Shown one piece after another: positions 16,560-57,408 of a DNA stretch of 64,000 bases. The translations under genes were made by a program, and so were the position numbers. Below the pieces are notes generated by a model that was given only the letters and a program-made list of their open reading frames with translations, ran no database searches and had not been told where the DNA came from. The stretch is taken from contig QPGO01000003.1 of NCBI GenBank assembly GCA_008632985.1, positions 62,001-126,000 on the forward strand, read 5' to 3'. Positions within the stretch are counted from its first letter, which is position 1; each line of letters starts with the position of its first letter. The DNA is from Psammoneis japonica. Taxonomy: Eukaryota.

Positions 16560-16571
16560 TTAAAAGGAAAG

Positions 16572-30247: not shown

Positions 30248-30879
30248 TGTCTTTGTATTTTCTTACCGGAAAACACTCTCTACAAAGTAGAAAACAGATA
30301 CCGTATGCAAAACAGCAACAACGAAACGAAACACGAGAAAAAGTTATTGTGGTCCTCGCTATTTTTTTTTCTGCGGTTGGCGGTTGGCAGCGAAAAAAAT
30401 GTGTGGCCACGCGACATACACGACCACGCACGCAACGACGTGTCCGAACCACGTCTGACGATTGTCACAGACACACAAACACAACACACGGTCAGACACA
30501 CAATTATTGTGTCAATTTGTGATGTCTTGGGGTTCTCTTTTTTCATTCCCGATTGCAGAAATGTTCCCTGACAGCATCCAAAATGGCCGACTGATGACAA
30601 CCTGACATTCTTTGCCTGCCAAGAGAGCATCCCCAAGAGGGGGGGCTGTGCACACACAGGCACCACACAGCTCTCCAGAGCAAGTGTCTGCCAGACAGAG
30701 CCAATCTTCAAACAATCATCATGGCCAACAATGATGGCGCTTTTGGAGATGCTGGGAACAGTTTGGAGAATGCACCAAGTGTTTCTTGACTGGCCTGCAT
30801 GGTCACAGCTCATGAGCCAGGTCACTTGTTGTTTTTGGGCAAAGAGGGCGTGTGTGACCAGCTTTTGAACAAGTCGGCC

Positions 30880-31200
30880 AACCTCTCACCCAAACAAGGT
30901 TGGCCCCATCTCTGCTGACATTTGCTCCAAAAAAGAAACGCAATTTGTTGTGCTTCCCAAATTTAAATTCCACAAATCAGCGTTCCCCGAATGTGCATTT
31001 CGGTCGGACCAAATCGGCACTTTGGTCAGACGAAATTTGTTGACAAATTTGATGCTCGTGACCAAAGTGATTTTGTTTCCCAAAAATGTCATTTTGGCAG
31101 GAGGGGGGGGTGAAATGCTTTTGTCGACCAAATTGCCAGACCAAACAAATCAATTTGGTTAACCAAATTGACGTTTGCAAAATCTCGACCAAATTCATTT
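30880..31200. repeat. Cluster of GACCAAA(T) motifs in both orientations, probably transposon subterminal repeats
   Basis: Repeated gaccaaat / atttggt / tttggtc. Confidence 0.5.
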
Positions 31201-33339
31201 CATGTTCATTTCCACACAAACAATGCTGGTGCAGCTTCTGCAAAAATTCCACGGCGTGTCAACACGTCATGGCATGACATGTGCGCCACATCAATCACAT
31301 GATGATGCATCACTTTCTGTGCACTGATTGTGCTCCCACTCACATGTGTGCTTTTGTTGACTGTTGCAAGAAGGGGGAGATGAAAAGGGTGCTGATGTTT
31401 GTGATTGTCAGTTGACTGATCTGTCAAAACATGCCCATGGCAAGTGCAGTTTTGTCTGCCCCAGCTCCGCAACATGACATGTTCATGAAGTTGCTGTCAA
31501 TGCACAGCACACAAACACACAATGTCAAGCACACACACCTTTGAGGGGCTGGAGTGGAGGTTGATGTTGGTTGCCAGCCAATCACAAAAAAATGTTCCTT
31601 GTGCTTTCCTGTGTGACAAAAAGGTGCTCTGCAAAAAGTTTGCTTTCCACATTCAAATGCCCAGCACCATGAACAACACACACACACACACCTCCTGCTG
31701 CACTCTTGCAAGATGTTGCTGCTTTAAAGAGTGGGGGAGACCAACAATGCCCACATGTTGGGTGTTCTGTGGCTGTGGTGGAAGGTGAAAGTCTGGCTCA
31801 AGCCAAGCTGCAAAAAATTGGGTGAATTGGGGCACACATCACAGGGCTCCTCAAAACTTGTGACTTGGGCATGTGGACAAAGGGAGGTTGACCCTTTCTC
31901 AACACCAAGACAGATGATGACATCCACACAAAACCCTCTTGGTCACAACACTCCATTGAAGCATTCCAGCCCTGGCTGGGCTGGGTGTGACCTTGTGCTG
32001 CATGGCTGCAATGTCGATGCTTTTTGTCATGCACCGCATGTTGCACTCACACATTTCTGCATGTCTTTGGTGGCACCTTGAATCATTGTTTTGCCACACA
32101 ACAATTGGGTGATCCACTGAACAATGTTTTGCATTTGTTCACACAAAGCAACTCTTGAGCATCCACAGAAAATGCTGGCACAGGTGGATTTTCAAAAATT
32201 TTGAGTTTGAAGAGGTGAGAACATGCTGGTGCAAAATTTTCCATTGTTCAGATGTTGTTTTCAAACAATGTGCCCATGTTGCTCAGTGTGTGAGCTGCAA
32301 AGCTTGCACACAGAACTTCGTGGACCCATGTTGACACACAAGCCCTGGCTGCTTGTGGGGCCAGAATGCCTCCATTTCATGGCTTGCTGTTGACCTCCTG
32401 AAAACTGCATTTCACCTCTCTTTCATGCTGAAAATGTGCTGCACAATCTATGAAGACTTGCTGCAAGCCACGCTTCTGAGTTCTCAGATTTGACATCATT
32501 TTGCATCTCTCTGTGGTCACTCTAGAGAGCAAACTCAAGCAAGGCAGAGTCTCCATTCACTGAAACTTGTTTTTGTTCTGTGGGGTGGTGGCATCAATGC
32601 AATTTGGTCAACATTGCTCAATTGCTTTTTCCTTGAACCACACGTCAAGAATCTTGTCAGCAAACTGCACTCTGTGTGCTCTCTGCCTCAAGCACAGCTC
32701 TCTCTCTTTCTCTCTTGAAGGAACGATCAAAATTGGCAAAGGTGTCAAGGTGGAAAAGGTTCTTTGGAGCCACACACTTGCTCTGCTCATGAGAGCCCTG
32801 GTGCACCAGCATCTCTTGCTTGGGTGATGGCATTGGCCAGAGCTGCTCCCTTGAGCCTTGCAGGGCCAGCACCTCACTCTCAGTTGCTGTTGGGCAAATC
32901 TCCTTGGCCAGAGCTTTCTCATGCCACCACCATTTTGCACTTGTGTTTTTTGGCCTTTCATTGCTGCCCAGCTTTGCCCCAGAGGGTGCTAAAATTTGGC
33001 ACATTGTTGGTGAGTGCAGAGATGGCACACAACATGGTGTTGCACCAAGTGACAGAGCTGGTGTGCTTCAACCAATTCTTGATGGAGAGTGGGTCTCCAA
33101 TTGGATGATTGCAACCTTGCATGAATGAGGATCTGATGGAGCCACCCTTGCTGTGGTCCAAGAAATGATGAATGTTCAGGCACCTCATCTGCCGTGTCAA
33201 TGTCGCCATTGGCTTCAAGAGGGTTTTTGTCATCATTGTAACTGTGGCGGTGGTCTGTGCGCACTCATGCCAATCGAACAATGCTCATGCACACAGCAGA
33301 TCAAGAACAACACATTGTTCCCTCTTTCACTCCAATCCA

Positions 33340-34570
33340 TGCCATTCCAAACTGACAATCAGTCTGCCACAGACTTTTGTTTGCATCGGCACAATGCTCT
33401 GACTCACAAAGAATCAAGACAAGAAAAACACATGGTTAAACTCAAAATGCTTGAACGACTCTGCGACATTGTGTGCTCGACAAGAGTGCCGCTGCCGCAG
33501 AGCTTTTTCAGTTGGCACGCACTTTTGCTGTTTTCTGGGCCTTCTTTTTTGCCATTTCAGGCAACACCCTTCTTCACATGTTCTCTGCAAGACACCCTGG
33601 ATTGTCCAGGCAGGACAGTGTGAATGTCACAACAATCACAAGGACTTGTGTCAAAAAGTTGGTGTGTGATGCCGGCCGAAGATGAGCATGTCGCCATGGT
33701 TGTTTCTTGGTTGGCGTGGAGGTGCAACGTTTTTGTGCAACACACAGTTGGTGCTTTGTTTTTTGTGCCTTCCGTTTTTGGCTGGTTTACACCCAAGCTG
33801 TCTTTGAGTTTGGTGTGTCCAGGAATCATGAGCGAAATGGGGTGGGAATTGCAAGACATTCTCTTGTGTGTCATCAAGCAATGCACGCATCCAAATGGTG
33901 ATTCTGACGCACCAGTTTCAGTGAGCATCTTGCATGGAGCGTCACTTCTTAATGCATCACAAGTGTGATTTTCATGGTCGAATGTCTCTCATGCTCTTGT
34001 CTCTTGTGTGGACTCTGGTTGCTTGTGCTGACACCTCGTCATTCTGTGACGTGCACATTGGGCACTCCCTTTGTGTTGCACTGTCGCACCTTTCAACTGG
34101 TGCATTGCTTGTGCTTTGATTTGCAAATGCCCGGTGCATTCATTGCCTTTGCCAATTCATGTGCCAAGGCACTGAATGTTGCAGTGCAAAACAAGTTGAG
34201 ACAAATGCAAGCCTGGAGTTTTTTTGGATGTGCAGTGTCGTGTTGGTCTCAAGGGATTCATTTTTTGCATCATTGTCACAAAGTTGTCATTGCAGTTTGT
34301 AAAAAGCCGATGCACCGCTGGTGCTGTTGGTGTCCACAAGCTTGATTGCACCAGTGCTTTTGGTGTTTTCAATTGGAAACATTTCATTCAGACACACTTT
34401 CAATGGTGGCAAAAATTCCAAACCATGCCGACACAAATGCTTGGTTCCCAACAGCAACAACAGCAAACATGCAGCAGATGACTCAGCTCCTTTGCCATGT
34501 TGGCATCAGCTTCAATGCAAGAGTCTGGCCCTGTTTCATTGAAATTGAGAGAGGAACTCAAGGGCAAATG
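33340..34570 (+). repeat. Dispersed repeat, copy 1 (homologous to ~60530-61760)
   Basis: Shared tracts such as gccgcagagctttttcagttggc, ccaggaatcatg..aaatggggtgggaa, and tggtgtccacaagcttgattgcac. Confidence 0.88.
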
Positions 34571-35999
34571 AGGTGCTTGTTTGAAAGAGAAACTCACTGA
34601 GCAGTTTGAGAAACAATCTGTGAGTCCATCTGTCTCTCCTCTCTCCAAAACCCAGAGCCAGAACACAGCAAGAAAAGTGCTGATGCAAAATGCTGTGGAG
34701 GCGTCAACTCCCACAGCAGCACTGCAACAATCACACCATTGTGGCACAAAAACCAAAGAAAAAAATGCATCACCATGTGAAATGCCGCCATTTGACGGTG
34801 ATGCAATGCTGGCTCTCTTCTTCCACCTCCTCATCTGAGTTTTCCTTGCAGACATGCAAACAACAACAGCACGGCTTAGACACCATCATCGTGCCATTTT
34901 GTCTGCAGCTGTCCTTGCGTGTTCTTTGTCAACAAAACAAATTCTCCTGATGAGCCCAAAATTTTACATCTTGAACAAACAAGGGAGGGGGGGGGGGGGG
35001 GGGTTCTGTGCTGGTGCTGTGGTGGGTGGGGACCAGAGGAGAAGCTGTGTGGTGTGTGTGCAAAAGAAAGAAGAGAGACAAACAAAAGCCAACATCTTGC
35101 TTGTGTGTGAAAAAAGTGGTGGCCAATGTCCAGGGCAAGACATTCCAGAATGAAAAGGTGAGCCTCACACATGAGAAAAGTGAGCCATGGCAAAGCTGGC
35201 TGTCCCATGCCATTTTGGTGGAGTTGCCCCATTTCTGGCTGTCACACAGCCCCAAGGCCACTCTCTCCTCTTGTTTTTTGCCAAGGTGTTGGCTGCAGTG
35301 CTGGAGGGGAGGGGGGCAAACAGGCAGAGACAGGGTGGTGCAAATGGGAGACACAATTTTTGAATGATGAGTTTGGTTTGGAAAAAACTTGTCAGGCACT
35401 TGACAAAGATCTCATCATCTGCTCTGCACAAAAAAAGGAGAAAACGTGGGCTGTGATGACCCCTGACAGGGGTTCTTGGGTGTGCCCACTCTGCAGTCAC
35501 ACACAGCATTGTGCACACATGCTGGCAATCTAAGAGCAGCAATGCGCTGAAAAACAAGCCTGGTTTGTGAGCCCTGTTGCACACCTTTGCCCAGCAGTGC
35601 TGGTGTCAGCATGCCCGCACTTCTGTCACACTGTGCTGCAATGTGCCAGAAGGGCAAAAACTGGCCAGAAGATGTGTCACCTGGTTGTGGGGCCCAACAG
35701 AAAGAACAGGTGATGGCATGAGTGCAACAAAGCATGAAGGACATTTGCTTCTTTGATGCTGTTTTTTGGATGTGGTCCAGTCATTGCAGCCAATCTGAAA
35801 GCAACACAGTGCTGCACAAAACAACAACTGACCAGGCACTCTGCATCATTTGCTGGCCTCTCACAGATGTTCAGCTCCATTTTGTGCCTTGCCACTGCTC
35901 CAAGGGCTCAACATGCACCTCGTTGCTGATGTTCACTCAGGCTTTTTGCCAAAGCCAGTTGTGTGCGCAGCTCTTGTTCAGCAGTTTGGCCTCAAACCA

Positions 36000-38900
36000 G
36001 TGCACAGCCAAGAGCACCTGAGGAGGGAGCTCAGCAAATTTGAGGGGAAAAGATTGGATTTCCTGGGGCATCCAGCTTGGCTCCCAGCAGCACTCTGCAA
36101 AGTGGGCTCCAGCTGCTCCATGCAGCCTGGCTGCTGGCTGCTGGTGGCTGTGCACTTTGTGGTGACATCCACCTCAAGAACCAGCTGCATGACATTTGCA
36201 GAGCTCAAATCCTGTGTTCTTGGCAAAAGATGCACAAACATGCAACGTGACAGCAAACATCCTTGGCCCAAAGAATGTGAAGAGCAAGTGCTGCGCAACT
36301 TGTGACAACAGAGTGGTGGACGAGTTCTGACTGCTGGACAAAAAGGCTGGCAAGCAAGTTGTGGCATTCAAAGAAGTGAACAACATTGAACTGTGTGCCT
36401 TCACACTGAGCCAGGGGTTCTTTGACTGTGCAAAAGATCTCCAAGAAACTGAGGTGCATGTGAGCATGCTGCTGTCAAAGAAGACGAAGAGACAAAGAAG
36501 ACTGTCAAGAGGCACAGGAGTGCATCTGGGGCCATGGCTCCCCAACAGAAGAGCAGCTTTTCACAGGCCACACCAAGAGGAGGGAGGTGGCAAGTGCTGA
36601 GCAAGCACTCAGAATGTGCTGTGAAGCTGGAACAACTTTCAGTGTCAGGGATGTTCAAATGATTTTGCTTTTGAGCCAGGTGAAGAACTTGCCCATCATG
36701 CCTGAAGGTGTGCACAGAATGGCGGCCATTTGGGGTCCACCAACAGATGCGTCAAAGGGCAAAACCAAACATGCACATCACTGCAGCTGCTCCACCTGAG
36801 ACACACAAGAAGCAGAGAGAAGATGTGATCCTCTGCATTGAAGGTGTGGAAGCATGCAGAGTGTCAAGCTGCCACACACAACAGACTCCAAGATGATCTG
36901 GTGTCAATCAAGTGTGAGGTGTGAGACTCAGGTGTGAGAGTCATGCCAATGTGTGCAATGCACTGGACATGATTCTCTGACAGCACAACATGGCTTTGTT
37001 TAAAATTGACTTCATTGAGTGTGATCCTGAGTTCAAGGCTGTGCCAGTGGAAGCTGCCAATGGCATGGATCTAGAGCTGATTTCCACAAACACAAGCGAC
37101 CATGTTCCTGAAGTTGGGCAGAGCATGCAGACCATCAAGGAGCAAACTTGAGCCACTGTGCACCACCTCCTGCACAAGACAACACTCAAGTTGATGCACA
37201 TGCATGCAGTGGTCAAGAACCCTCCTGTCATGTTGAATGTGCACCCACAGAAGGAGAGAATTTCTGACACTTGCAGTCTGCATGCCATTGTGCCCTTGAT
37301 CATGACAAACACTTCAAGTTCAAGTTCAGGGGATTTGCTCCATCTTGCATTGAGAATGATGACCTGACAAATGCCGGGGATGTGCGTGGTGTTGGCAGTG
37401 TTCACCTGCAATCACATTTTGATTTGACCAAAGGTGGCCACCACACACTGCAAACCTGCACACATGCAAGCTTTTGAACCCAACAAGTTTGCTGCCACAC
37501 CCTTGACTGACGTGTGCACACAAGCTGTCAAGAAGATGGTCACATCACAGGGCATCAAAGAGCTCAAATTCTTGGGACAATGTGAAGACAATCTGTGTGA
37601 TGCTGGCTGGACTGCGGCAGTGGACAATGACAAAAGCAAAAGTGATGATGACAGTGAAGATGAAAACAAAAACCAAAACAACCACTTTGATGCCAACTGC
37701 ATGACCAAGGCAGAAGATGAAGATTGTGAAGACAAAGCAGGAGACTCACATGATGAGCATGAAGAAGCAAATGAGATCCAAGCCTGCAAAAGATCCAGCA
37801 CAAATCCCAAGAAGACAAGAGATGGGAAGGAGAAAGACAATCAGAGGAAGATGCAAGAGCCACATCTGGCAGAGCAGCCAGAAGCAGTGCATCATTTGGT
37901 GCATTCTTCAAACATCAAATCACAGGAACACAGAGAAAAGAAAGCTCAGTTTGCAGGAGTGGCAGATGACATCAAAGCAGAATGAGAGCAAAGTGAGCTC
38001 AAATGCTGCCATCATTTACAAACAAACATGAGTCCCAACCCAGAGGACAACATCAAGCAATGTGTGAAAACAGCAATGGTGCTGACACAACTCATGTGTG
38101 AGATTGATGACTGACTGTGATCAGGGAAGGGCATTTCCTTTGCCCAACAACATTTGCTGCATGAGTGCCCAAAAGTGTTTTTGCGCCAGCACCAAGGCTG
38201 CAGTTGCCTTGGTGTCCCCAATGGAGAAATGAGGTGGTTGTGTCAAAGGGCCAATGGTTTGCAGTGGGAAACTGGCTGGACAATGGCTGAACAAGGATGA
38301 TTCAGCCAGCCTGACAGCACTGTTGGAAGGAGTGCCAATGACAGCTGTCATTGATGCTGTAGAAGATTGTGGCACAATGAGTGCCAATGCACCAACATGT
38401 TCTTTGTGCAGACTCTGATTCTGGAGCCCAAGGAAAGTGGCGAGGACTGGATCATGACAAAGGTTGCAGGAGTGTTGGTCAAGATGCCAGCAAGCATTGA
38501 TCTCAACCCACGTGCTGCACGCGGTCATGGAAAAGGGGAAAAGAGTCCTCTGCATCCAAGTCATCAGAGCTGTGTGTGGCATGTCAGTCACAGCCTCACC
38601 ATGGCACAAGCAATTTTGAGAAGATGGAGTCCAAGCTCAACCCACATCCAACTGAACAGTCCAAGGCAAGCAGCACACTGTCCATTGCCATGTGGATGAC
38701 CCACAGTCAAGTGACAAGAACTAAAAAGCAAATGACAAATTTTCAAGCTGGCTGAACAAGATGTGTGGAAGCCATGGCAAAGTCCTTGCAACACGGGGAA
38801 AGATGCATGACCACCTTGGCATGACCCTGGACTTCAGCTGCACAAGGGCAATTTAAAGGGTGACAAACTGACTGCATTCACAAGATGATTGATCAGTCCT

Positions 38901-39700
38901 GGAAACAGTGAAGAAAGTGGACAGTGCCATGATGCCAGCTGGAGAGAACACATTTGACTCCAGTGGCACAAGATTGCCAACCAAGAAAGCAAAGACATTC
39001 CATGCATGGGTGGCCAGGGGGGCAGGGACCACTTGTGTCCAAAAGAGGCCACATGAATGTGCACTGCACAGTCCTCTCTGCATTGTGCACATGAGTTCAG
39101 AGAGCTTGCCAACAAGGGCTGGGGAAAACCAGTCCATTGCCTCAAACATTTGAGCTGGGCACAACACAAAGTCACCACACTGAGCATGAAGGACCCCCAA
39201 GTGAACAAGTGGGATGTGAGTGCATTGTTTGCAGTGCATCCAGATTTCAAGAGCCACAGAGGAGGAGAGTTGTGGCCATGGGCAATGAAGCAGTGCATGC
39301 ATGTTAAAATGCCAGAAGCTCAAAACCCAAAGCAGCACAGAGGGGCTGAACTCACAGGAGTCAACGACTCAATGGCCATGATTCTGTGGATGAAGTTGTT
39401 CATGGAGCACCAGGGGCATCACAATTGACAAGAACACCCTGCATCAGGACAACAAGAGCACCATGATGCTGTTGGAAACCAGTGGGTGCCGGAGTGCAAG
39501 AAAGCAATCCAGAGCACTCAACATTCTTTGTCATTTCTTTGTCATCAATCAGATCATGAAGGGCAATCTCAGAGTGCAGCACTGCCCTGCTGATGGCATG
39601 CTTGGGGACTTCATGGCTGCGCCATTACAGGGCAAGAAGTTTTGAAAGTTCAAATGAGCCATTGTGGACTGTCAACCTCAAGCATGGCAGGAGTGTGAGT
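36000..39700 (+). mobile_element. Degraded Ty1/Copia element of the diatom CoDi type (IN-RT-RNase H); LTRs not resolved
   Basis: VKNLPIMPE..AIWGP..KGKT. Integrase DHVPEVGQSMQTIKEQ. RT TAVIDA, GKQHTVHCHVDD. RNase H FAVHPDFKSH, HQDNKS, VQHCPADGMLGDFMAAPLQGKKF. Followed by caggagtgtg. Left boundary uncertain. Confidence 0.88.
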
Positions 39701-40759: not shown

Positions 40760-43710
40760 ATGCCTCAACTCAAGGGTTTTCTGTCTGTGTTGCATCATGT
40801 CAAGGGTTGTCATGTCAAGGCAACTCACCTGACTTGCACTCCCATGATGTCACCTGTGAATGTCACTTGCTCCAGTTCTGAGACTTGATGTCACACTTTG
40901 GTGCAATTTCACAACATCAGATCCCCTCCTCCACCCCAAAGGGATGATGTCATTGCTGCAATGTCAGAATTTTTGATCAGGCCCATCCATGCTAAACTCT
41001 GAAATGGGCATTTGTGCCATCTCACATTGTGCATTTTCCATCTCAGCTCGGCTGTTTTGCCAGATTGCACATTTCAACACATGACAGAATCATCAAACCA
41101 TCTTGTTGTTTCTGCTTCTGCCAAATTCATCACCTTCAGATGCCGCACTCAGCTGCCATTCATGCAATCTCACACTTCCATCTTTTGTTTCTTCTGGAGA
41201 TGCCCCTGCTCTGCAGCTGTTGGCCACCACAAGCAATGCAATGTGCCACCCCACAGCACCCGTTGTTTTTTGCATCACACATCCAACCTGCTCTGCGGTT
41301 GTTCTCCATCCTCTCAGTTTGTGACATTTGCATTTGAACCCAACAAGCTCCCACTCCCACCTGTGAGTGACATTTGCAGCCGTGAGAGAGCCACATGCCA
41401 TTCTTGTTGTGAAAGGAAATGACAATGCAAGACACACATGTGGCGCACACTTGCCTCTTCAATGACTTCATCCTCCTTGGCCTGCTTGATTTCCTGCTCT
41501 GCATCTTAAAACAAATCTTGCAGCATCAACCTTGATTGTTTCTCTTGTCTGTGGCATCCAGCCCATTCACTGTCCATGTCATTCTGCCTGCAACAGCTTG
41601 GGGGTTCCTGTTGTTGGTGCCGCCCCCAGCAGCACTCTGGTTGTTCATGCTTTGTGTCCAATGTTCAGTCAAAAAGTTGATTTGTGTGTTGGCCAGTTGC
41701 AGCTCTGTCGGATGTGTCCTCAGCAGTTTTCAAAGTTTTCACAGTTGCTGTTTGCAAATGTTGGAAATGTGCTCATTGCTGAAGTTCTTAATTTTGAATT
41801 TGAACAATGATGACACGCAGTTGTGCATTTGTTCAATGTGTTTGTTTTGAACAATGCAGATGTCCAGCCTTAAAAAATGCTTTTTGAAGCTTGTGTTTTC
41901 CTTTGTTGATGAAGATCCCTCTTGCAATGTCTGATTTCCTTGTGACGTGGACACCTTTTTTGTGCTGCAGGGCTGTGTCACAAATGCAAACATCAGATTT
42001 TAGCTGCTGCTCTCTGCCAGCTACAGCAGAGAGGGCCTGCTGGAGCTGACAGGAATGATGCTGCACTTTTGCACCACCTGCAGCATGCAGCTGCCATCAA
42101 CAGTGCTGCTGTGGCCCCTGTCTGACATTGTCAAAGCAGCTCCTGCTCACTCTGTGGCAGAGGTCACACATTTGCAGCTGCCATTGCCAAAGCCCCTTCC
42201 TGTGTGCAACACAGATTGACAGCATGTTGCCACAGCCCCTGGCTTGATGATTTGCAAAATGCTCTGCAGCAGAGTTCATTTTTCATCATTTTTGAATTTG
42301 CCATTTTTTTTTTTTGCAAGTGCATCCATTGCCATTGGTCGTTGTGTCCTCTGCAGAGTTTCAGGGTTGCCACAGCCAGCGAACACCAACAATCCACATG
42401 CGCCAGCTTTCTGGGGCAGCCAAACTCTTTCAACAGAGATTTTGGGTCCAAAACATTGAATGGCACCCCCTTCCTTGGAGGTGTCACTCTCGGTCTCACC
42501 GGGGAGCAAGCCCACAGCTCTCAGAGGCTGTCTTGATGTTCAGAGGTGGGGGGAGCCACAGGCATCCCAGGCCACATGAACAACTTTGCAGAAAGACATT
42601 GTGTGGGCACAGCTGCAGCTGGCAACCCAGGCAGTTGCTCAAAATGTTCAGAGACAAGAGCAACCTTGTCTGCTGTTTGCAGCCAGACTTTTCAAAAAGC
42701 AGCAGATTGCAGATTCAAAAAATGAATGAACACTCTTCACCCTTGGACCACTCCACATGGTGCTCAAGTTGAGCTTCACAATGAGGCACTGGCATCTGCT
42801 TGAGCTGCCCAGCAAGGTGTTGGCATCCACTCATTGAGCTGCCTCACATGTCGCAGCATCCACTTGAGCCACCATGTTTGAAGTGGCATCAACTCAAGCC
42901 ACCCGCATGACATGGCATCAACTTGAGCCGCCCGAATGACACAGTGTCAACTTGAGCTGCCCTGCATGACATGGCAATTTCCTGTGGAAACATGGACAAA
43001 GATCAAAGGAAAACAAGAGGTTGAGAAAACAAAAAAAAAGGCACTGAATTGTCACAATCCATCAAATGCCGTGGAGTGATTCACTGACTGAATGTGAGAA
43101 TGAAATGACAGCATGATGACAGAAGCAGCTTTCATTCATTTTTGGACTTTCTCTCACCTCTCTTTTCACAGATGTGCTCATCAGAAGCAAAACAAATCAT
43201 GCCATGCAATGGCATTGTTGGTGGGAAAAGTGTTTGGTGGCAAAACATGGCAACGGTTGATGATGCCGTCATGGCAGTTTTAGTGGCGGTTGGCGGGGCA
43301 GTGTGTTTTGAAATGGGGAGAGGGAAATCTGACCTGACCGTCATGATGTCACATGATGTTTCACCGTGTGGTCCATGGTGTGCCAGAATCTGACATTGTT
43401 GTGGTGACATGAGCAGCTGCGCATGGGAACAATGTGAAACATCATGAGGACACAGAGGGAAATCTGACCTCATGTTGTGACGTTGCATGACATTTTGCTG
43501 CAGTGAGCCAGGTGAGAATCTGACATTGCGGCCATGACATCAAATGCCCAGACAAGAACACAACAAAATGTTGCCATCAACTAAAAAATGTCTGGTGTGA
43601 CATTGCCAAGCAGAGGGACATCAACACAAGGGAGGTCAGGGGGGAAAGTCACTTGAGATGGTGAACCCCTGACATTGAAACCCAACACGAGAGACTCCCT
43701 TGAGAAAGAG
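40760..43710. mobile_element. Possible relic DNA transposon with long degenerate inverted ends
   Basis: The reverse complement of 40769-40833 resembles 43635-43704 (gtcagg..cttga.atg..aacccc/ttgacat..caacac..cccttgag). AATCTGAC repeats at 43320-43530. Confidence 0.35.
42791..42975 (+). repeat. Degenerate ~29-30 bp minisatellite, about 6 units
   Basis: Consensus approximately ggcatcaacttgagccgcccgcatgacat. Confidence 0.75.
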
Positions 43711-43769
43711 TCCCTTGCAATGGAAAAAACACCCTTGAGCTGTGCAAAGTCTGGCGGAGCCCATTTCCT

Positions 43770-46700
43770 GTGCATTGACTTGCTGACTCAACAGTGACTC
43801 ACAGACGGACAAAATCCAGCCACAGCACCTTCTTTTGTGAGTCCCTTGGGGGCACAACAGCTCATTTGACTTTTTCCACACCCTTTCCATGGCAACAACC
43901 CCAATGTTTTTGCAGGTGAGCACCCCTTGACAGCGCCACATCTGCGTGTGCCAGCTGCAAGTCACCAACCTCTTGGCTTCCTTGAGACTTTCTTTGAGTC
44001 TGGGTTTGACCACATTGGTCCAATTTTGAATGCGTGTTGCAGCAAAGGTCTGTTGTTCTTCTGTGGAATCAAGCAATGCCCCTTGTTCTTTTGCCAAGCA
44101 TTCCTGCTGCTTGTTGCACATGGCAGTCAATTTGGCCTCCACTTTCCATCTCTGAGAAGATTTTCTCATGTCTGCGTCATGTCCATGGACGTGCTTGTCA
44201 TGTTCTTCCCACAAAGCCCACCAATGCCGCCATGCAAACAACCCCATCTGAACTGTCCAATTTGGTGGTTGCTTGTTCTCCTTGTGGCACTGACAAAGAA
44301 CACCTGAATCTCTCAGACATCTGGACTGAATGACATTCCACAGGGAAGAGCACTGTCCATTGAACACTTGTCTCTGCCCCACGTCTGTTTGAGCTCGCCA
44401 TGGGGATCTGCACCTGCAATCTGTCTCTTCCAGACATGCTGTTTTGCCGGCAAACCATGCTTCAATGGATTGCAATGAGAAATCTCGAAGAGTGGGCATG
44501 GCATCAATGCGGTCACAATGTCTCCTCAATCCTTGCAAAAACTTTCTGCGCCAAGGTTCGTTGTGCGGACATTGAAGCACATGATCCCAATCTTCCATTG
44601 GATGCTCGCAGTGAAGACATTGGTGCGGTCGAACCGAATTGTGTCGGTGGACTGTCTTGTTGGTTGGGAGATCATGAACGAGCTTGACTGTTCCAACATG
44701 TTGCTTGGAGTGACGTTTGATGAGAATGGCGTGAGCATCCCAGTCTGTCAAATCGATCACCTCTGGTTGCCACTGATTTCGCTTGCCAATGCATTGCAGG
44801 AGTTTTGGGGTGGTGGCCACACATCTGATGTGACGCTTGTAACCTGCCATCAACGTGCTGTCTTTAAGACTCAAACATGAGTGACAGTGAGGAAAGGGTG
44901 TCACCATTGTGGTGCCCCACATGTGCTGGTCTTGATGTGCACCTGCCAATCAATCAGTGCAGACATTTGCTCTTGCGTTGAGGGGCAAAGCATGAATTGG
45001 AGCATGTCTGTCTTGGTGGCCTTTTGCCCATTTGACTGGGAATGGCATCTTGAGTCTGGTGTGCAACATCTCATCAATGACGTCCCAATCTGAGGATGTG
45101 CTGTTGGCGCCGTGATGTCTGATGTGAAAATCTCTTGCCTCATTTGACTGGTCTCCTGAGGTTGGTGCCGGAAGGGCAAAAGTGAATTGTTCCAGACAAG
45201 ACACCAAAGCTTCATTGTTGCAGTGTGATTCCATCTCTGGAAATCTCTCTAACTTGCAGCATTCCATGAACCGGCAGATGAAGCGAGTGAGAGACAGGAT
45301 GCCACAAGCCTCTGCACAATGTGAGGATGGTTGTCTTCCAAAGACTGGGCCAGTGTCCCTGCCAGAGTGATCGTCCACCCAAATGTGGCACCTTCTTTAA
45401 CGGATCCATCACTTCTGGTGGTTAATGTCGAGGATGCAAAAAGTTGAATCAGCACTTGGGATGACACGTGAAAATCCAGTTGTTCGAACAACTTAGCTTC
45501 CCATTGGGAGAGCGAATGCAGCATGTCGTGAAAGGTGTCCGGCAACCTGGACTGTGGGAGATCAGACAATGAAGTGTGGGGCAGGGCAAAGACCCATTGG
45601 CCATCTTCTGCAGTGGACAGCTCAACGGGGAAAGATTCTTTGGATGGATGCAGGACAGTCTCCAACTCCATGATGGAGTCAGTTCTTGTGCCATTTGCCT
45701 GAAAGATGCAACATCCATTGGGAGATCAAACATGCAAGTGATCTTTGGAAGGGGAGAAATGTGTGGTTGCTTGCATGTGCATGCAAGAAGGGGGCACTGA
45801 CCAATTGCCCCAAGAGGTTCCTTGAGAGTCTGTGTTGCCAGATGGCACAAGAAAGTGCAGAACTTTCTCCAAGCTGTCCAGGCTCTTGTTCCTGGTTTCT
45901 GCTGCTCAATGTTGTTCAAAGCACCAGTGCTGCTCTGGAGCAAAGGATCTCCTGCCATTTTTGAAGCATCCAATTGTCATGCCGTCTGACAAAGTGATGT
46001 CGGACACGGATGACACCTGCAGATGCAAATGACAATGATTGATCCATCAAACTTCATGGTGAGAGAAGAGTTGGGACTGGAGCACAGCATCCATGATGTG
46101 CTGGTTGTCATCTCGTTGGAGAGGGAGAACTCCAGAATGTGCCAAACATGCTTTCCCATGAATTCTGTGCAAGAATGCACGAACAGAAGCAAACCAACAC
46201 GACTCCACATGTGGGAGAGCAGTGCCCACATCCCACAGGAAGCTCACACCTGTGCCCAAGTTCAGTCGGATCCAAGAGACTGCGATGTGCAGCAATTTGT
46301 GTGGTTGATCCTCTCCCAGATGAAGATTTGCAACTCCTCTGGAATGCTTGAGCAGCATTTGCAATTGAGCAACTCCTTGTTCCACGTCCAGCGAGCAAAA
46401 ACCACCGCCACTGAGAGCTTGTGGACCGCACAGGATGAGTCGTTTTGTGTTTTGGTTGCACCCACATTTGGCAAATGTGATCTGCATTGCTTTCTGTTGA
46501 ACGGTGAGCAACTCTTTTGGGACAAAAGTCGAGTCGTCAGGGAGAACACAAGTCATTGAGGAGAGACAGCATGCATGGCAGCATCTCCATGTTTTGGTGT
46601 GATCAAGAGGGCAAGAACAAAGGAAAAGGGCCGCAGCATCGCTCTTGTGTTGGAGTTTCTTTCACTGGGTCTTCTGGGTGCCGATGGGAGCCACACAGTG

Positions 46701-49700
46701 TCCGAGAGTTTCATGCGGAGCACAAGCTGAGAGTTGCGTGCTAGAATGGGAGTTGGACCTGTCTGCTGAGAAGATTTCAACATCAAGATCTTCATGGCAT
46801 GGACGAATGTAAGGCTCTCCACACTCAGTGAAATCCCACTCAACGGCATGAAAAGAACACTTCGGCAGTTCAAGTTCATGTCCAGCTGCATCCAGCAAGT
46901 CACACCACAGTTGATCACCCTGTTGTAAAGAAAAGGACAGATCAAGTGCCAAAGGTTGAGGACTTGCACGAAAATCATTGACTTGTTTGGACACATCATC
47001 TGCACATCCTCGGTTGAAGACTCAAATGTGGAATCAACCATCAGGGGTTTCGAAATAAGCTCCAATCGCTCTGGCATCAAACATGTTGAAAAGATGGCTG
47101 CACAGGGTGTTCCAATGCCACGGAGAGTTGCCACTGTGCCTTGCCCTGTGCCACACAGAGGGAGATCTTCTGTGTGGGAGTGACTTTGCTGAGACAAGCC
47201 TGGCAGGGTTCGGAGCCAGCACCGAGCGTGATGCAGAGCATCCATGTTCACTTCAACCGCTCGCGAGTGCACTCCATTGCTCTGAGAGCAAAGTCCAGCA
47301 ATTGCGGGAACATTTCTGTCAAAGCACGAGGTGCAATCATCATTGCTCGTCAGCATCGTCTTACGAGAAGCTCGTGACATTTCTGACATCATGTTTTCAA
47401 GAAACATGGGAGTTTGTGCAGAAAGGAATGAGCGGCATCCACAAATGCTGGGGTTGCACATCCGGTGGTGCTCCATGTGCTGTGCCAATTCTCGCCATTT
47501 CACACTGGTGATGATTTGAAAGTCTGCTTCACAGATGTGGATGACCCGCAAGTGATGGATTTTGTTGTTCCTGGGTTCTTTGAAGATCATCACGTTGACG
47601 ATGTCTTTCCAACGGTCATGTGAGTGTCCCCACTTCAGAGCACAGTCAATGAGATGAAGGCATGTCACGAACAAGGCTTGCTGGACCTGACCCAGGTGCA
47701 ACTTCTTTGGAGTCGGATTGCCTTGTGCATCTTGATCTTTGGAATGTGAATGAGGGACATGCAGTGCCTTCCAATGACCAAGATGCAAACCTGATTTCAG
47801 CAAGGTGGACGTTGATTTGGACCACATCTTCAATTTTGACAATCAAGCAGTGAAAGACATTTCATTGCTCACCACCGGAGGTGTGCATCAATGGAGGTGC
47901 TGGACAAGCAAGGAGGCAGCAAGATTTAACTGACTGGTGTTGCACTCCCCATCCAAAACAAGTTCTGCCACAATGGTGTTCCTTTCATGTCCCAAATCCA
48001 CGGACAGGGGAGATGCGTTCCAGCTCCAGGTGGGACCTTGCACCACTGCACTGTGACATCAACAGTTTTTTGGATCGTGTCACATGTCGCGCACGTGCAT
48101 TTCTGCATGTCATGTTCTACGAAATTGTTTCATGTTCCCTGTTTTGCAAAGCCAAAGGCTTTCTATTTTCAACAGTCATGAGAATGAAAATGCGCTGGTC
48201 ATGTTCTTTAATGTCTGCAGAACATGCATGGGCAAACTGTCATTGATGCACTCCAAGCATGAAGGAGAACATGCGGTCGTAAAATTGCCTCTTTTTCTGT
48301 TGGCAATCACGGAGCTTGCACGTGGAATTCTGTGGGCCCAATGTCACACGGAGTCCCACCTGGGACTGGAACCCGTCGGGAGGGACGGCAGGTGGTGTGC
48401 CTTTGGCTTGGCTAAAATGGTGTTGGTTCCGCATTTGGAGTGCTGCTGCAACATCATCTGGAGCGTCTGTTGTCATCCAATGTTTGCATGTCTTTGGGCC
48501 ATCATGAGAGTCAGCTGGCACTTGGACAGTCTTGATGCTCGAGTCTGCTTTTGCCTTGCAAGCATCAATCTTTTGGAACATTTTCTTCGTCTCTTCCGCA
48601 CAACGTAGATTGCGTAGAATTCTCGCCTGGGCTGCAGACACTTTGGTGCCATCCAGTTCCAATTCCGCAATCTTGGTGTCTCTTTCCGCATCTTGGTGTT
48701 TCTGGCTCTCTTTTGCGACCTGACGGCATTCTGACTTGGCCCGGCACAATGCGTCTGAACATTCTTGGATTGTCATGGGAAGAAGAAAGGCAGTGGAGAG
48801 TTCACACTTCTCTCTGAGGATTGAAGGCACCATGTCCTTGCGGTTTTGGAACATGGACATCATCCTGGACAAGACAAAAACTTGTTTCTGAAGGTCCAAT
48901 GATTTGAGGGACCACTCTGCTTCTTTGCAACATTTGCATTGTTTGGCTGCTGCAAGCGAGAACTGCATCATGTCTTGATCCAAACGCTCTGCAAGGCTGT
49001 GGTTAGGAGCATCTGATGAAAACAGAGCCTCTGCATGGGCTTGAAGATTCCGGCTGTTGATCAAGGGTGCCATGGTTTCAAGATGAGTGGCAACATGCTT
49101 GGGCAATGAAGCTTGAAGATCTCTGTGCTGTGGTCTCGGCAGGTCCACTGACGGACCACCAAATGGGGCAACGGTGTCGAAGTCCATGAAATGAGCACGG
49201 TGGTCTGAAGACATGCGACACCCGAGTGGCTCACACCCACAGAGCCGCACCACTGCAAGAGCACCTGGTGTTGCAAGGACACAGTCCAAATGTCTGGATC
49301 CTTGCAGGTGGGTGGTGAAGTCCAAACATTCATGCTGATGATGCATGACATCTGACATGTTGAATCATTGGGCCATGGATGCCAAGGTGTCAGAATCATG
49401 GTGGAAGTCTGTGTTGAAATCACCAGCCAGGATCACTTCTCAATTCGGTTCATCCAGAAATTGTTCTAGGATGTGCGTGAGGTCAGCACAGAAAGCGCGA
49501 CAAGGGTCGGGATTTGCTCTGCCTTGTTGTCAGAGGAGAGCCAATTGCTGTGCGCATGCTGTTGTCTTGCCGGCAATGGATGATGAATTGGAGCACACTT
49601 GGCAACATGAGACAAACACAACTTGACATCCATGCTTTCCATTGAAGATCTGTGTAGACCAACGTCTCAAGGGATCTTCATGTTGAGTTCAACATCTTGC

Positions 49701-52100
49701 GGAAAGGGAATTGCATGACATTAAATCGGTGCCCCCTGGTTCACATGGGGCAGAGAAGGGAGTCTTGGACGCTGAACAGGTGATTCTGCAGTGATGAAGT
49801 GATCGTTTCACCACTGCCACACAGCTGTGCCAGACTTGAAATTGTGCAGTGTCCAAACACATCTTGGAAATTCCAATGACATTGGCTTGGATTTCCATGG
49901 CCACTTGTGCACAATCATTAAAGTCCCTGCCTTGGTGGTCAAAGGAACACCCATTGGCATTGAACGCGTGCAATCTTGTGTGTCTGGGCGAGGGCAATTT
50001 AGGAAGCAATGGATCACCAACTGGGTCATTGGAGGACAATCTGGAGCAGTTGATGGTGGCAGAGGGAGGGGCACAATTGCGTCCTGACAACAGCTGGGTC
50101 CACTGCTGAGCAGCGGGATCAACTGCATGCAAAGGGGTGTCACCCCTCATGTGCAAGCCATGCTTCCTCAAAGGAAGGCTGCAGGAAGACTTTTGTCTGC
50201 GTCATGGACAAGTGGCAGGTGAGACGACTGGGCCTGACCCATGGAAAATCCAAATTGTCCACTTCAGTCATCGAAGTGTCCTCAGGAGGATTGTGTGAGG
50301 AAGAACCTGCTGGAGCCGACGCAGCTGGCTTCTTCTGATGGGGGGAGACTGGGACATCTGGAATGACAGAGGCAAACATCTCTTGCATCACAGTCTGCAA
50401 TTGAGAAGCGAGAGTGGTTTGCAACTGGGAAGCAACTGCTTGCTGCAACTGAGTCGACAGAGCCAAAATGGATTCTTGATGTTTCCTCTCTAATTCTGCA
50501 AAACGTTTTTCTTGATCTTGCTGGTTTTGGTGAACAAGTTGTTGCAGTTCAGCGATTTCCACAGATTGGTTCGACACATCCAAGATGGGAATGGCACCTG
50601 GGATGACTGCCCCTGGCGTGTTCTTCAAAACTTGGGAATGTGCAGGAAAACCCGCATGCACTCCAATGCTCTTTGGTGCTGGAGGTCCTTTGGAATCTGA
50701 CGCCTGTGGAGGAGCAATGGAAGCCACTGGAGAAATGTCTGAAATGTCAAGAGACGCCCAACTTTGAATGTTTGTGGATGAGATGGATTGAACCGCATCG
50801 GACACATTGTCGTTGATGCCGGGGATCACAGGCCCAGGTTGACTGTCCGGAATTCCTGCCTCAACTGCAATGGCTTGGAACCACTCGGGGAGATGTTTGG
50901 CAATGCAGTGTTTGGCTTGATGAAAACAATCCTCATTGACAAGAATGTTGTGCCACTGGACCGCAGATGTTTTCTTCGATGGGACGACGTCTGGCACTCC
51001 AGTCACCTTTTTAATTGTGTCGGTCAGACAGAACAAATGGGCTTCTGTGCAGTGAAGCAATGGGATGACATGAGTCTTGGCACTTGTCTTGCATTGTTTG
51101 CGGATTGCTTTGTCAAAAGCTTCCGGTTGAGAGTGACGCCAGCAGGATGGGACTGTCACAAGTGGATGTTCTTTCAGAACCTCCAACAAGGCGTGGATCA
51201 CATCTTTTGCGTGGTCGCGGGGTGTTTCGATGGCACAAAAGTTGGTTCAAAGAGATGGATCTTTGGGAGATGAAGCCAACTGGACTGTCAACCTGAAGGG
51301 TGGCTTCAAGCGGCTGCGTTGAGGAAGAAGGGTCATCAACAATTTTTGAGCCACATCCTCTGGATGATGCTTTGGTGGCAGGTCGACAAGAAGAGCCACG
51401 CGAGCAAGGTCAATGATGGTCTCGTCCCAATGGTGGCGGCGCATGCAGATGCCATTGTCTTTCAATGCTTTGTTGATGAAAGGAGTGTTCCTGATGTCAG
51501 CAAGAGACAAAGATGTTTGGATGCGGTGTGCAACAACAAACGTTGGGGAGCGATGGCACGAACCTCCAATGCGATGCACAACAAAGTGTTGAGAATGAGC
51601 AAGTCCAGCAGTCCACTTGATGACATTGATTTCGGGGATTTTGAGACTGCGGTTTGACAGAATCGTCATCTGATTCATCAAAGGGTCTTGGGAGGCTTTC
51701 TGTTGGAGGGTGTTGAGGATGGCAGCATGACCCATGGCTGAGACCGTGGATGCATTGTTGTCAGATGAGGTCAATTTGAAACGGATGGCAATCTCCTTGA
51801 GCTTGGAGCTTTTGGGTTTTCCAGATCCAGTTCTGGTGGGAGCAGGTGGAGCATCATCCATGACAGGCATCCATGACAGGGGGGGATCAGGCTGAGGATC
51901 ACCAGCATGGCCAACCTGCGGTGGCGGAGGGTTCATCATGGTGATGAGTTTTTGGTGCAAATTTTGCACAGAATTCCACATAGAAACTGTCAACAGGTGC
52001 TTGCATGGAAAAGTGTCACCATCATCATCAGGTGGTGCCATGTGCTGAAACAGTTGGCAAAAGCACACCCATTGCAGCAAACTGTTGTGCATGTGCATGC
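43770..52100 (-). mobile_element. Non-LTR retrotransposon (LINE) with ORF1 and APE-RT-RNase H-CCHC ORF2, Ambal-like, mutated
   Basis: APE LHAFNANG...LDCVLAT...SSDHRA. RT KIHHLRVIHICEADF, DCTSCFDR, GTGQG, GCADD. RNase H SDGS...AEACG...WAKGHQD...NVC. Knuckle CLHCEHPMEDWDHVLQC. ORF1 relic at ~50140-52098. Clade assignment is from domain architecture only. Confidence 0.9.
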
Positions 52101-54423
52101 ATCACACAGTGAACAAAACCATCAACATGCTGAGGCACACATGCTTTGTTGATCAAGGAAACAAGCCCTCAATGGATGTTGCACCCCTCAAAGCCCACAA
52201 CATTTTTCTGGTGAAGTTGTGACAGCTGCTGCTCAGCCTGTGTTTTCTGTTTCTTCTCTCATCTTCCTCTTCCTCCTCTGAGCCCTCCTCTGAGCCCTCC
52301 TCTGGGCCCTCTTCTGAGCTGACTTCTTTGAGTCATCCTCTTCCTTGTGGTCTTCTGGGAGAGCCGCTGCTGCTGACAAGATCAAGAACTTTTGTTGTTG
52401 TCATTTGCAACAAGCTCTCTGAAGAGCACTTCTGCTGCTCAACTTCTCCTCCAAGCTCTGGCACCACAGTGGGTTTGGCAAGAGCACCAGTGCACACCAG
52501 ATGCAGAGCAGCTGGCACTCCTTTTTGACAAGCCACTGCAGTGGTGCGAATGCACTGAGGTCAGGCATGCTTGGTTTGTGCAAGCAAGTTTGGCTGGTCT
52601 TGCCCGTCAGCTGCAAAACAAGTGCTTGGGAGGACAGCCTGAAAAACTGTCAGCTGTCATCTCTCTGGCTGCCAAATCTGGGCAGTTGTGTCCAGGCCAA
52701 GCATTTCAAAGAACAGCTCTAAAAGCAGTTTGATGACATTGTCTTCTGGCACTGCTTTGCAGCACTTTCTGCAGAACTTGAAAAGTGCTGCCAACAATGA
52801 CAGAGATTTTGTGGCAGCCACACTCCACACACAGGAGGGGTTTCGCACATGTGTTTTGTGCACACCATGGCGGTGACACACTGACAACTCTGTCTGATGT
52901 CCATTTGCCTGTGCATGGCAAAAGACAATCAGCTGCCACACAACAGATGCTGTGCCCCCAGCAGAGGCTGCCATTCAAAGATGGCAGCAACGTGCAGCAT
53001 GTGTTGATCCCACAGGCTGCTCTGTGACCAGCGTCAGTTGCCGTGCCACCTCACTGCCATCTCCACATCTGGCAGCAGCAACTTTTCATGACAAAAATCC
53101 CAATGATCAATGACTCGCACATCCACACATGTGCAGACACACAAAACCAGGCCTGTGGGGAGCATTGACAACTTGTCTTTCTTTGTGGGTGTGTGCCATT
53201 GCATGCTGCATTGTGTGTGCACACGTGCCGGTGCGGCCCTGCTGCACTGTGCTGCCACCAGCATGGCCACTGCACACCGGTGACATGGATGACCATCACA
53301 TTTGATGGCTCACGCCATTTTTGGGGCTGCAGCGAGAGGTGCGCGGACACTCTTTTTTTCCCAATTTGTTGCCATGACAGCGCACATCACACAAGCGCAC
53401 TCATTGTTCGACATGTTTTTTCCAATGTGACTGTTTTGTGTGCAATTCATGTCAATTTCTCTTCACACAAAGTTGAGTGCATTTTTCAACATGCCATGCC
53501 AGCAATCCCAATTTTGCATCACTTTCGATCTCTCCTGAAAAACCACTCCACGCACCCCGTCGCAGGGAACCCATCAATTTTTTAGGATGTCCCCACAACC
53601 TCCAATGTCCTCTCAATGATCATTCTGCAAATCCGAGCAATTCATTTGCACCAAACAACCCATGTCATTCCAAAATCACAGGGACACACTTTCAAATGCG
53701 GGCAGACTGACTGCCGGGCCGACTGTCCGACATGAAAAAGTCCGCAATCACCAGCCACTGAGTGGTCAATGAAAAATGGCTCTGCACCTGCAATGTGCAA
53801 AGGTTAGACCTCCTGGTGGGGTGTGTGGAGAGGGGAGCCCACCCCTGGTCTTTTTTGTTGACTCAGATGCTGTCTGCAGAGCTCTTTCCCAGGTCAGGTG
53901 CAACAAAAGCTGGAGACTTCAAGGAGCAGAGAGAGGGGCTCAGCACCGTCTGTCTCCACTCGTGCTTGCAGATGCAGCACGCCCCCTGAATCTGCCTTGC
54001 ACCACAGCACCCTTGGCTGTTCTGTGTCAATGCTGTGTCCTCCGTTTTGCATGATGGCAGGCTGCTTTTGAGCGCACCAAGTCAGAGAGCTTGACAGAGG
54101 CTCTCAAAAGGAGCGCGCAGCACTTTTGCGTCACGGGTCATTTTCGAAAGATTCCCATTGATGTTGTACCGCCTGTAAAACACTGTCACACATCCAAAGG
54201 ACATAATTTTATGACTTTGATAAAAGGGCATAAAAAATTGAGTCATCGATGAAACAAAAAAATGTCTCGAGGAAGGATAAGGTTACCGGTTACCGGGCGG
54301 CAGGTACAGTAATTGTAACCTTACCGAGGTGCCGAAATCTCATCTCTTTGATGAGTCCCTGAACAGAGTGTCTCAAACCTGAACGTGAACTTTGTGTATG
54401 GGAAGAGGAAGAAGCGCTATGCA

Positions 54424-57293: not shown

Positions 57294-57408
57294 CCAATTT
57301 TCTTGCTCTTGCTTACACTGGGCTGTTTCTTGACCTTGATGGAGTGTGTTGTTGTTGCGCCAATCGTTGCCATTGTTTTTGTTTTGCACTGTGCATGCTG
57401 GAAAACAC
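57294..57408 (-). pseudogene. Duplicated 5' fragment of the HEAT-repeat gene
   Basis: Encodes MATIGATTTHSIKVKKQPSVSKSKKIG versus MATIGATTTHSIKVKKQPGVSKSTKIG at 30168-30247. Confidence 0.9.

Follow-up and report, generated by a model that had tools for sequence, protein, structure and literature searches.

The best described counterpart of the process reported here is known from the alga Bigelowiella natans. According to the accessible part of a recent preprint (Mettrop et al., bioRxiv 10.64898/2026.01.13.699255, 2026), giant virus and virophage DNA integrated in this alga undergoes a de novo hypermutation in which A>G and T>C changes occur at TpA only. The process is ongoing and episodic, with 231 de novo mutations recorded and a rate about 1000 times the background, and genes that are poor in TpA and rich in CpA and TpG are enriched in reverse-transcriptase (RT) and endonuclease-RT genes. 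An adenine deaminase is proposed there as the agent; the enzyme is left unidentified and an ADAT2-like candidate family is named. No flanking-base analysis was found in the main text of the preprint, which was the only relevant report that the literature on TpA hypermutation in diatoms, algae or transposons returned. Here, we analyzed a window of 64 kb (the whole stretch of DNA under study, positions 62,001 to 126,000 of contig QPGO01000003.1) that contains three nearly TpA-free blocks, namely B1 at about 17.0-22.2 kb, B2 at 30500-54160 and B3 at about 57.3-62.7 kb. Retrotransposons are recognized in B1 and B2, and the few TpA that survive in B2 reveal that the process depends on the flanking bases.

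In B. natans, as far as the accessible text of the preprint goes, A>G and T>C changes fall at TpA only, on both strands and in foreign DNA only, and the loss of TpA is accompanied by a gain of CpA and TpG. In the window, the change is likewise restricted to TpA, touches both strands and is confined to mobile DNA, comprising a long terminal repeat (LTR) element and a relative of the long interspersed nuclear elements (LINE); the origin of 13 kb of B2 is unrecognised. The two cases differ in their targets, which are integrated viral and virophage DNA plus genes resembling those of transposable elements (TE) in B. natans and retrotransposons with a loss of 94-100% here. They also differ in that the present host is diatom-like, that a hierarchy of flanks and a test of direction are added by the present analysis, and that no de novo mutations were observed in it. 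TpA hypermutation is already in print for B. natans; new are the diatom-like lineage, the saturation of retrotransposons, the flank rule and the first direction test.

Repeat-induced point mutation (RIP), by which fungi defend their genomes against repeated or foreign DNA, shares with the present case the transitions on both strands after integration, a dinucleotide context, sharp confinement and the destruction of reading frames. RIP, however, converts C>T at CpA and creates TpA, whereas here TpA is destroyed and CpA and TpG are created. Instead of the TpA excess typical of RIP we found TpA loss with a gain of CpA/TpG, a mirror image on another base and in another kingdom. RIP furthermore acts on repeats, whereas most of B2 stands at approximately single-copy depth (80% likeness, contigs of run X1). 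In animals, APOBEC3 and ADAR also direct deaminase hypermutation with a nearest-neighbor context against retroelements. They act on C in minus-strand complementary DNA (cDNA) and on A in double-stranded RNA, respectively, and in contrast to the present case leave one-stranded signatures that predate integration. A one-stranded pattern identical in both LTRs was not found here, as the LTRs differ and both Cys and His occur in place of Tyr. To our knowledge, no natural enzyme deaminates adenine in chromosomal DNA as a defence, and the existing adenine base editors were evolved in the laboratory.

TpA loss and the flanks of the surviving sites

Block B2 (30500..54160, no strand assigned) combines a TpA void with low CpG and high TG/CA. 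Its 23,661 bases contain 63 TpA (observed/expected ratio, O/E, 0.04), which is about 6.6% of the approximately 960 expected when the ancestral number is estimated from neighboring genes. CpG stands at an O/E of 0.27, TG at 1.80 and CA at 1.82. Normal DNA of the window has 1144 TpA in 28.2 kb (O/E 0.59) and values of 1.18 for TG and CA. An earlier description of this DNA, made from the letters alone and hereafter called the sequence-only reading, had stated that AA and AT steps remain abundant in B2, and the counts bear this out: AA has an O/E of 1.18 versus 1.17 in normal DNA and AT of 0.91 versus 0.92, and AG is likewise unchanged. The edges of B2 are sharp. On the left, a TpA at 30505 is followed by the next one at 30964, and on the right the last internal TpA at 53805 is followed by one at 54167. 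TpA density is back to about 40 per kb at the block edges and the adjoining genes are spared. The conversion of TpA to TpG or CpA is nearly complete in the blocks (94-100% loss) and halts sharply at these genes.

The sequence-only reading had further tallied about 60 survivors, with two-thirds in the context YTAR (Y, pyrimidine; R, purine), the remainder in YTAY or RTAR and none in RTAY. Our count agrees closely: 41 of the 63 sites are YTAR (20 TTAA, 9 CTAA, 8 TTAG and 4 CTAG), 12 are RTAR, 10 are YTAY, and RTAY is absent. In normal window DNA, RTAY accounts for 340 sites (30%), RTAR for 317, YTAY for 297 and YTAR for 189 (17%). The survivors of B2 deviate strongly from this baseline (chi-square 96.6, p=8e-21), and the probability of drawing no RTAY among 63 sites is 2e-10. 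They also differ (p=2e-9) from what the flank composition of B2 itself predicts, which is 13.2 RTAY and 18.5 YTAR; the depletion across NTAN is not uniform after composition correction. The same holds for a comparison with 31 unmutated metagenome relatives of the retroelement (6125 TpA), in which RTAY makes up 28% and YTAR 21.5% (p=3e-16). YTAR contributes 22 of 32 survivors in the left part of B2, 16 of 28 in its LINE part, 3 of 3 in its right part and 11 of 14 in B3, and RTAY is missing throughout. As a side observation, the asymmetric survivors in the two coding elements are mostly YTAY on the sense strand (B1 interior, 4 of 4; LINE, 9 of 12), compared to 56% expected from unmutated relatives.

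We described these data with a model in which the survival of an NTAN site equals exp(-(dose top-strand A + dose bottom-strand A)) and the ancestral density is taken from normal window DNA. Compared with uniform removal, the additive model was strongly favored (likelihood-ratio p=2e-23), and it left a residual deviance of 8.0 with 10 classes and 4 parameters. The half-site doses, ordered by the base 3' of the adenine, were 0.34 for A, 1.10 for G, 2.29 for C and 3.38 for T. Removal efficiency depends on the flanks, in the order TAT > TAC > TAG > TAA under this per-strand additive model. Fitted survival is 0.52 for TTAA, 0.22 for CTAA/TTAG, 0.09 for CTAG and between 0.01 and 0.08 in the mixed classes; of about 285 RTAY, none remains. 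RTAY, which is favorable on both strands, is erased, and TTAA, which is unfavorable on both, survives in about half of the cases. In addition, the survivors often have T at position -3 and A at position +2 (54% vs 27%).

Block B3 (57315..62660, no strand assigned) bears a B2-like signature with low CpG and 14 TpA, of which 11 are YTAR, 3 are YTAY and none is RTAY. The partly mutated left edge of B1 (16450..17400, plus strand) retains 11 TpA (about 12 per kb versus about 40), comprising 6 YTAR, 2 RTAY, 2 RTAR and 1 YTAY; these two are the only RTAY near any block. The edge has an intermediate TpA mix and displays the same bias at an earlier stage. These numbers bear on the idea that the 63 TpA of B2 are new mutations of TG or CA that arose later, so that their context would reflect their creation and not a preference of the mutator. 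TG and CA together amount to 5352 in B2, and back-mutation of about 1% would suffice for the observed count. RTGY and RCAY, however, make up 1430 of the 5352 (27%), and about 17 new RTAY would be expected where none is seen. A context-dependent removal would be needed anyway, and the B1 edge has the bias already. We consider such a late origin of the survivors very improbable.

Strands and timing of the TpA conversion

B1 contains a Ty3/gypsy-type LTR retroelement (16563..22017, plus strand), recognizable by its LTR pair, an RT/RNase H open reading frame (ORF) and TpA loss. The LTRs (16563-16738 and 21844-22017) are identical at 158 of 177 positions. Between about 17400 and 22229 hardly any TpA is left, and CpG is normal there (275 CG in 5.1 kb). 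The mutated zone is displaced with respect to the element, because the TpA-free tract extends 212 bases past the aligned end of the 3' LTR (22017-22229) and four TpA are left in the 5' LTR. The RT/RNase H ORF (18849..20273, plus strand, 474 amino acids, aa) contains no Tyr, versus a mean of 3.7% in 40 homologues, and Cys or His stand at its conserved Tyr columns. When a column counts as conserved for Tyr if 60% or more of the aligned homologues have this residue, the pol region of B1 has 24 such columns, now occupied by Cys (13), His (8) or other residues (3) and never by Tyr, and 14 of 16 conserved Arg columns still read Arg. In the contigs of run X1, the LTR family reaches a depth of about 1950-3200 versus about 60 for single copy (2831 contigs over 16400-36399), and its size is about 30-50 copy-equivalents.

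The second retroelement lies in B2 (43636..52101, minus strand) and is represented by ORF pieces of 284, 368, 374, 429 and 437 aa among others, which are interrupted by TGA stops and frame shifts. The 429-aa ORF (46553..47842, minus strand), an RT-flanking part, contains 1 Tyr next to 18 Cys and 24 His. When the whole library was searched by HMMER with this ORF, 1369 proteins were recovered at E<=0.001 (best 4.7e-50). Many of these relatives are about 2000 aa long, and among six that were scanned with Pfam, five have Exo_endo_phos and three have RVT_1 (below cut-off). Because of these relatives we assign 43.6-52.1 kb to a degraded, minus-strand non-LTR (LINE-like) retrotransposon; it was identified by the HMMER library search together with the Pfam scan of the six matches, and its own ORFs gave no Pfam match. 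An Atlas lead to zf-RVT at 0.87 was below trust level and was set aside. The element has 25 conserved-Tyr columns, which read Cys in 14, His in 6 and other residues in 5 cases, again without a single Tyr. Its conserved Arg columns have changed to His, Gln or Cys in 16 of 34 cases, and these Arg changes are CpG decay.

A TAY>TGY change turns a Tyr codon into Cys, and TAY>CAY turns it into His. Taking both retroelements together, the 49 conserved-Tyr columns contain 27 Cys, 14 His, 8 other residues and no Tyr. Since Cys and His both occur at former Tyr columns, these alignments are direct evidence that TpA was converted to TpG or CpA by transitions on either strand. A repeat shared by B2 (33347..34562, plus strand) and B3 (60533..61759, plus strand) with 77% identity gives a similar picture: over 1.25 kb, 48 CA/TG double sites separate the copies, along with 27 sites with CG versus CA or TG and 2 sites with TA/TG. 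TG and CA are nearly equal in number, with 1549 versus 1545 in the left part of B2 and 639 versus 634 in B3. In both retroelements, TG exceeds CA on the plus strand (553 vs 410 at 17085-22228 and 973 vs 818 at 43636-52101), although their sense strands are opposite; this excess could be an effect of replication direction or of ancestral composition.

The timing of the changes can be read from the LTRs. The two LTRs of one element are identical at integration, but those of B1 differ by TG/CA swaps at shared positions. Together with the differences within the repeat pair and the balance of TG and CA, these swaps show that the process acts after integration and on DNA, where it hits each copy independently and on both strands. 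An origin in RNA or cDNA edited prior to integration is thereby excluded. A-to-I editing of transposon transcripts by an ADAR- or ADAT-type enzyme, followed by reverse transcription and integration, could appeal to the fact that two of the mutated elements are retrotransposons and that RNA editors, in the accessible accounts, prefer U before the edited A. It conflicts with the changes on both strands (Cys and His from Tyr; TG close to CA), with LTRs that differ by TG/CA swaps and with the 212 TpA-free bases past the 3' LTR. The +1 purine preference given for fungal ADAT2/3 and ADAR in the accessible accounts is moreover the reverse of what we observed. We attach next to no weight to an RNA-level origin.

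The conversion is specific for TpA. AA>AG is rare, as K>R or N>S was found at 1 of 46 conserved Lys/Asn columns of the B1 element and the LINE, compared to 0 of 49 columns that retained Tyr. DNA polymerase eta (Pol eta) makes A>G at WA (W, A or T), and such mutagenesis, which the sequence-only reading had ranked behind a deaminase, does not fit, as the AA step is unchanged as well (O/E 1.18 vs 1.17). Pol eta-like error-prone repair synthesis at WA, or an artefact of composition or assembly, are explanations whose probability we regard as negligible. In favor of an artefact, the X1 contigs are perhaps derived from the window's own sample, so that they provide no independent check. Against it stand the sharp block edges beside normal genes and the TpA content of unmutated RT relatives (O/E 0.48-0.98), as well as the fact that, according to the accessible preprint text, de novo mutations with this signature were measured in another alga.

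The decay of CpG seen in the older blocks is distinct from TpA loss and slower. TpA loss precedes it and is independent of it, because B1, which has lost its TpA, keeps its CpG and its Arg columns. Within B2, CpG varies from about 5-15 per kb at 31-43 kb to about 25 per kb at 43-52 kb. The blocks lose all TAA and TAG stops and Tyr codons. Selection on stop codons was considered as a cause and rejected, as the blocks are non-functional.

Direction of the flank rule and the candidate activity

From the ranking of the survivors, the sequence-only reading had concluded that the target is T-A-pyrimidine. This step does not hold, since an RTA rule predicts an identical ranking; by strand symmetry both rules give the same numbers, and the ranking alone cannot separate them. 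The preference itself finds moderate support in the product sites. We therefore turn to YTAY and RTAR sites with an inferable ancestor, at which a rule reading the 3' base predicts YTGY and a rule reading the 5' base predicts RTGR. Among 24 asymmetric sites, 18 were resolved as TAY>TGY (p=0.023), where the 3' rule, given the fitted doses, leads one to expect 19.2. The likelihood ratio in favor of the 3' rule is 38 when compared with an undirected process and 1e9 when compared with the 5' rule. Tyr codons after a pyrimidine gave 5 Cys to 3 His in B1 and 9 Cys to 3 His in the LINE, and all four non-coding comparisons fall on the TAY strand: GTAG in the 5' LTR versus GCAG in the 3' LTR of B1, GTAA versus GCAA and CTAT versus CTGT in the window (among the differences listed for X1 family copies, the majority of which keep TpA), and TTAC versus TTGC in the repeat pair. 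By context, TTAY sites changed on the TAY strand in 9 of 11 cases and CTAY sites in 9 of 13. On these sequence comparisons, the flank that is read is probably the base 3' of the adenine (T-A-pyrimidine) and not the base 5' of the thymine.

Several points weigh against this direction and against the numbers behind it. The direction test comprises 24 sites, 20 of which are Tyr codons that all have TAY on the coding strand and may thus share a coding-strand bias, and the symmetric RTAY control gave 13 Cys to 8 His, from which YTAY is not different (Fisher p=0.74). The four non-coding sites assume that TpA is ancestral, and the neighboring genes that supplied the ancestral TpA numbers are not true ancestors. 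A related, Tyr-free public RT reads 7 Cys to 10 His. When the gain of products per kb is estimated from composition, YTGY versus RTGR agrees with TAY in B2 (21.2 vs 13.5) and B3 (35.5 vs 11.8), where CpG decay confounds the count, but disagrees in B1 (2.1 vs 7.4), where the totals do not sum. The neighboring-gene baseline used for all three blocks is doubtful, and we give this count little weight.

These points lend some credit to a process without strand direction, in which a factor, for example a dimer, would read double-stranded R-T-A-Y as a palindromic 4-bp site, its binding would grow with each favorable half-site, and either adenine would be hit at random. The survivor ranking is fully symmetric and equally well fitted in this case, and the protection is symmetric out to T at -3 and A at +2. 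The Tyr codons alone stand at 14:6 in YTAY (p=0.12), like the 13:8 of the RTAY control, and the product gain of B1 does not favor YTGY. The full set of asymmetric sites, however, lies on the TAY strand in 18 of 24 cases, with the likelihood ratio of 38 given above, including all four non-coding comparisons, to which a coding-strand effect cannot apply. We regard the undirected process as unlikely, and T-A-pyrimidine as the probable target.

A target of this kind can be compared with the known adenine deaminases. In the accessible accounts, wild-type TadA and ABEmax favor UACG, whereas TadA-8e favors UA and has no downstream preference. Bacterial TadA, on this information, resembles the activity seen here in the obligatory T/U before the adenine and, provided that the 3' base is the one read, in a favored +1 pyrimidine (C in TadA); it works by the A>I>G route, and engineered forms act on DNA. 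Its natural substrate, in contrast, is one tRNA loop, and in the present doses a +1 T does no worse than a +1 C. A T on the 5' side of the adenine is what the blocks display, as only TpA is lost; the +2 position shows only protection by A, with the TAY contexts all gone (RTAY 0).

The eukaryotic enzymes present a different picture. As far as the accessible text goes, mRNA editing by ADAT2/3 in Fusarium graminearum, the only eukaryotic editing by these enzymes for which a motif has been measured, favors U at position -1, C/U at position -2 and A/G at position +1, where C/U is depleted (PMC9600606), and editing in the sexual stage of this fungus is carried out by FgTad2-FgTad3, again according to the accessible text (PMC11087585). 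The strong U at -1 is shared with the present case. However, the fungal enzyme, as described there, prefers YUAR, the very class that survives here (41/63), and it edits one-strand RNA hairpin loops (PMC9600606). ADARs are described, in the accessible accounts, as having a weak flank preference in which G/A at +1 is slightly favored. Because the measured flank preferences are opposite, "TadA-type" and "ADAT-type" should not be lumped: the flank rule appears to fit TadA and to oppose fungal ADAT2/3. This bears on the ADAT2-like candidate that the accessible preprint text names for B. natans.

The explanation that we favor as a whole, and to which we give somewhat better than an even chance, sees B2 as a nest of dead mobile elements, with at least one LINE-like retrotransposon, in a gene-dense, diatom-like nuclear genome. 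After integration, a process at the DNA level turned TpA into TpG or CpA on both strands and near to completion; in the additive model it hits the adenine most readily before T, then before C, then before G and least before A. The chemical step would be the conversion of adenine to hypoxanthine within the DNA, carried out by a nucleic-acid deaminase that some mark would aim at silenced foreign DNA. On this component, and on a flank preference of the enzyme closer to bacterial TadA than to eukaryotic ADAT2/3 or ADAR, the comparisons leave us evenly balanced.

Two objections to a deaminase have to be weighed. TadA-like enzymes need a single-stranded substrate, so that both strands would have to be exposed over 24 kb and near to saturation. 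In addition, a modification of thymine that miscodes as C yields the same products and the same flank symmetry. In the latter case, the T of TpA would be the target and would, for instance, be oxidised to 5-hydroxymethyluracil (5hmU) or 5-formyluracil, which pairs with G and gives T>C. TET/JBP-type chemistry would oxidise thymine, and dinoflagellate DNA has its 5hmU preferentially at TpA and TpC. Every count fits, as a T>C change reads as A>G from the opposite strand. The window contains no positive evidence for such a modification, though, and oxidised thymines are mostly repaired back to T. In the accessible accounts of TadA and ADAT enzymes, furthermore, a T before the adenine is the universal -1 rule. 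A thymine target seems rather improbable to us, and we retain adenine deamination as the preferred chemistry.

Host surroundings, related records and significance

The genes that flank the blocks encode a USP-type ubiquitin hydrolase with a DUSP domain, a C1-domain protein, a subtilase, an EF3-like HEAT protein, Tim10 and an M64-like peptidase. The flanking host ORFs are long and tightly packed, and exons are long. For one host gene, all named relatives come from diatoms (Nitzschia inconspicua, Cylindrotheca closterium and, as a transcript, Asterionellopsis glacialis), and those of the B1 RT are diatoms as well (Cylindrotheca, Thalassiosira and Nitzschia); an Atlas lead agrees with both. Because of these named relatives we infer a diatom-like host genome, though the best identities are low. 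A scan of 27 host-region ORFs of the window revealed no deaminase domain, and no tRNA genes were found in the 64 kb. The left 13 kb of B2 (30500-43635) are without a recognisable protein remnant despite an identical mutation signature, and tblastn with fetched TE proteins against the window detected no further coding remnants in the left part of B2 or in B3. A Pfam scan of 64 block ORFs and 4 further ORFs of B1 gave matches at chance level only.

Further observations concern the surroundings of the blocks. The edges of B2 and B3 are alike, with 83-89% identity between 30168-30260 and 57294-57385 and between 54080-54123 and 62929-62973, and the left shared stretch overlaps the first codons of the EF3-like gene. 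These common stretches suggest a duplicated flank or a shared terminal sequence. Two tandem paralogous genes of unknown family (12579-13917 and 14577-15930, 78% identity over 1370 bases) are not depleted in TpA; duplication by itself does not set off the process here. The region of the subtilase gene (22400-24400) has about five times the single-copy depth in run X1 and diverged relatives in run X2, which points to a gene family or to a second genome in the sample.

The same hypermutation signature is present in other public records, because two RT relatives are Tyr-free or Tyr-poor, with Cys and His at Tyr columns. P0019, an NCBI-sourced relative, has 7 Cys, 10 His and no Tyr at 17 conserved-Tyr columns, and P0010, from JGI, has 9 Cys, 4 His, 3 Tyr and 2 Phe at such columns. 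A metagenome scan with P0010 identified 31 loci, none of which was TpA-depleted (O/E 0.48-0.98).

The loss of TAA and TAG stops and of Tyr codons misleads gene callers and homology searches, as seen in the 64 block ORFs, for which no real Pfam match was obtained. The flank rule provides a simple read-out for assays and a way of locating such blocks in other genomes, and it narrows the search for the enzyme to a TadA-like rather than an ADAT2/3-like preference. The saturated signature in retrotransposons of a diatom-like host implies that the process may be widespread in marine protists, and the Tyr-free RT relatives concur. Diatoms and chlorarachniophytes are two distant branches of the SAR supergroup (Stramenopiles, Alveolates and Rhizaria). 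We tentatively raise the possibility, which we consider more doubtful than the explanation of the window itself, that both share an A:T>G:C mirror of RIP, in which a nuclear, TadA-like DNA adenine deaminase with a TAY preference would act on silenced transposon and viral DNA, on both strands, until almost no TpA is left. If true, chromosomal DNA would be the substrate of a naturally occurring adenine base editor.

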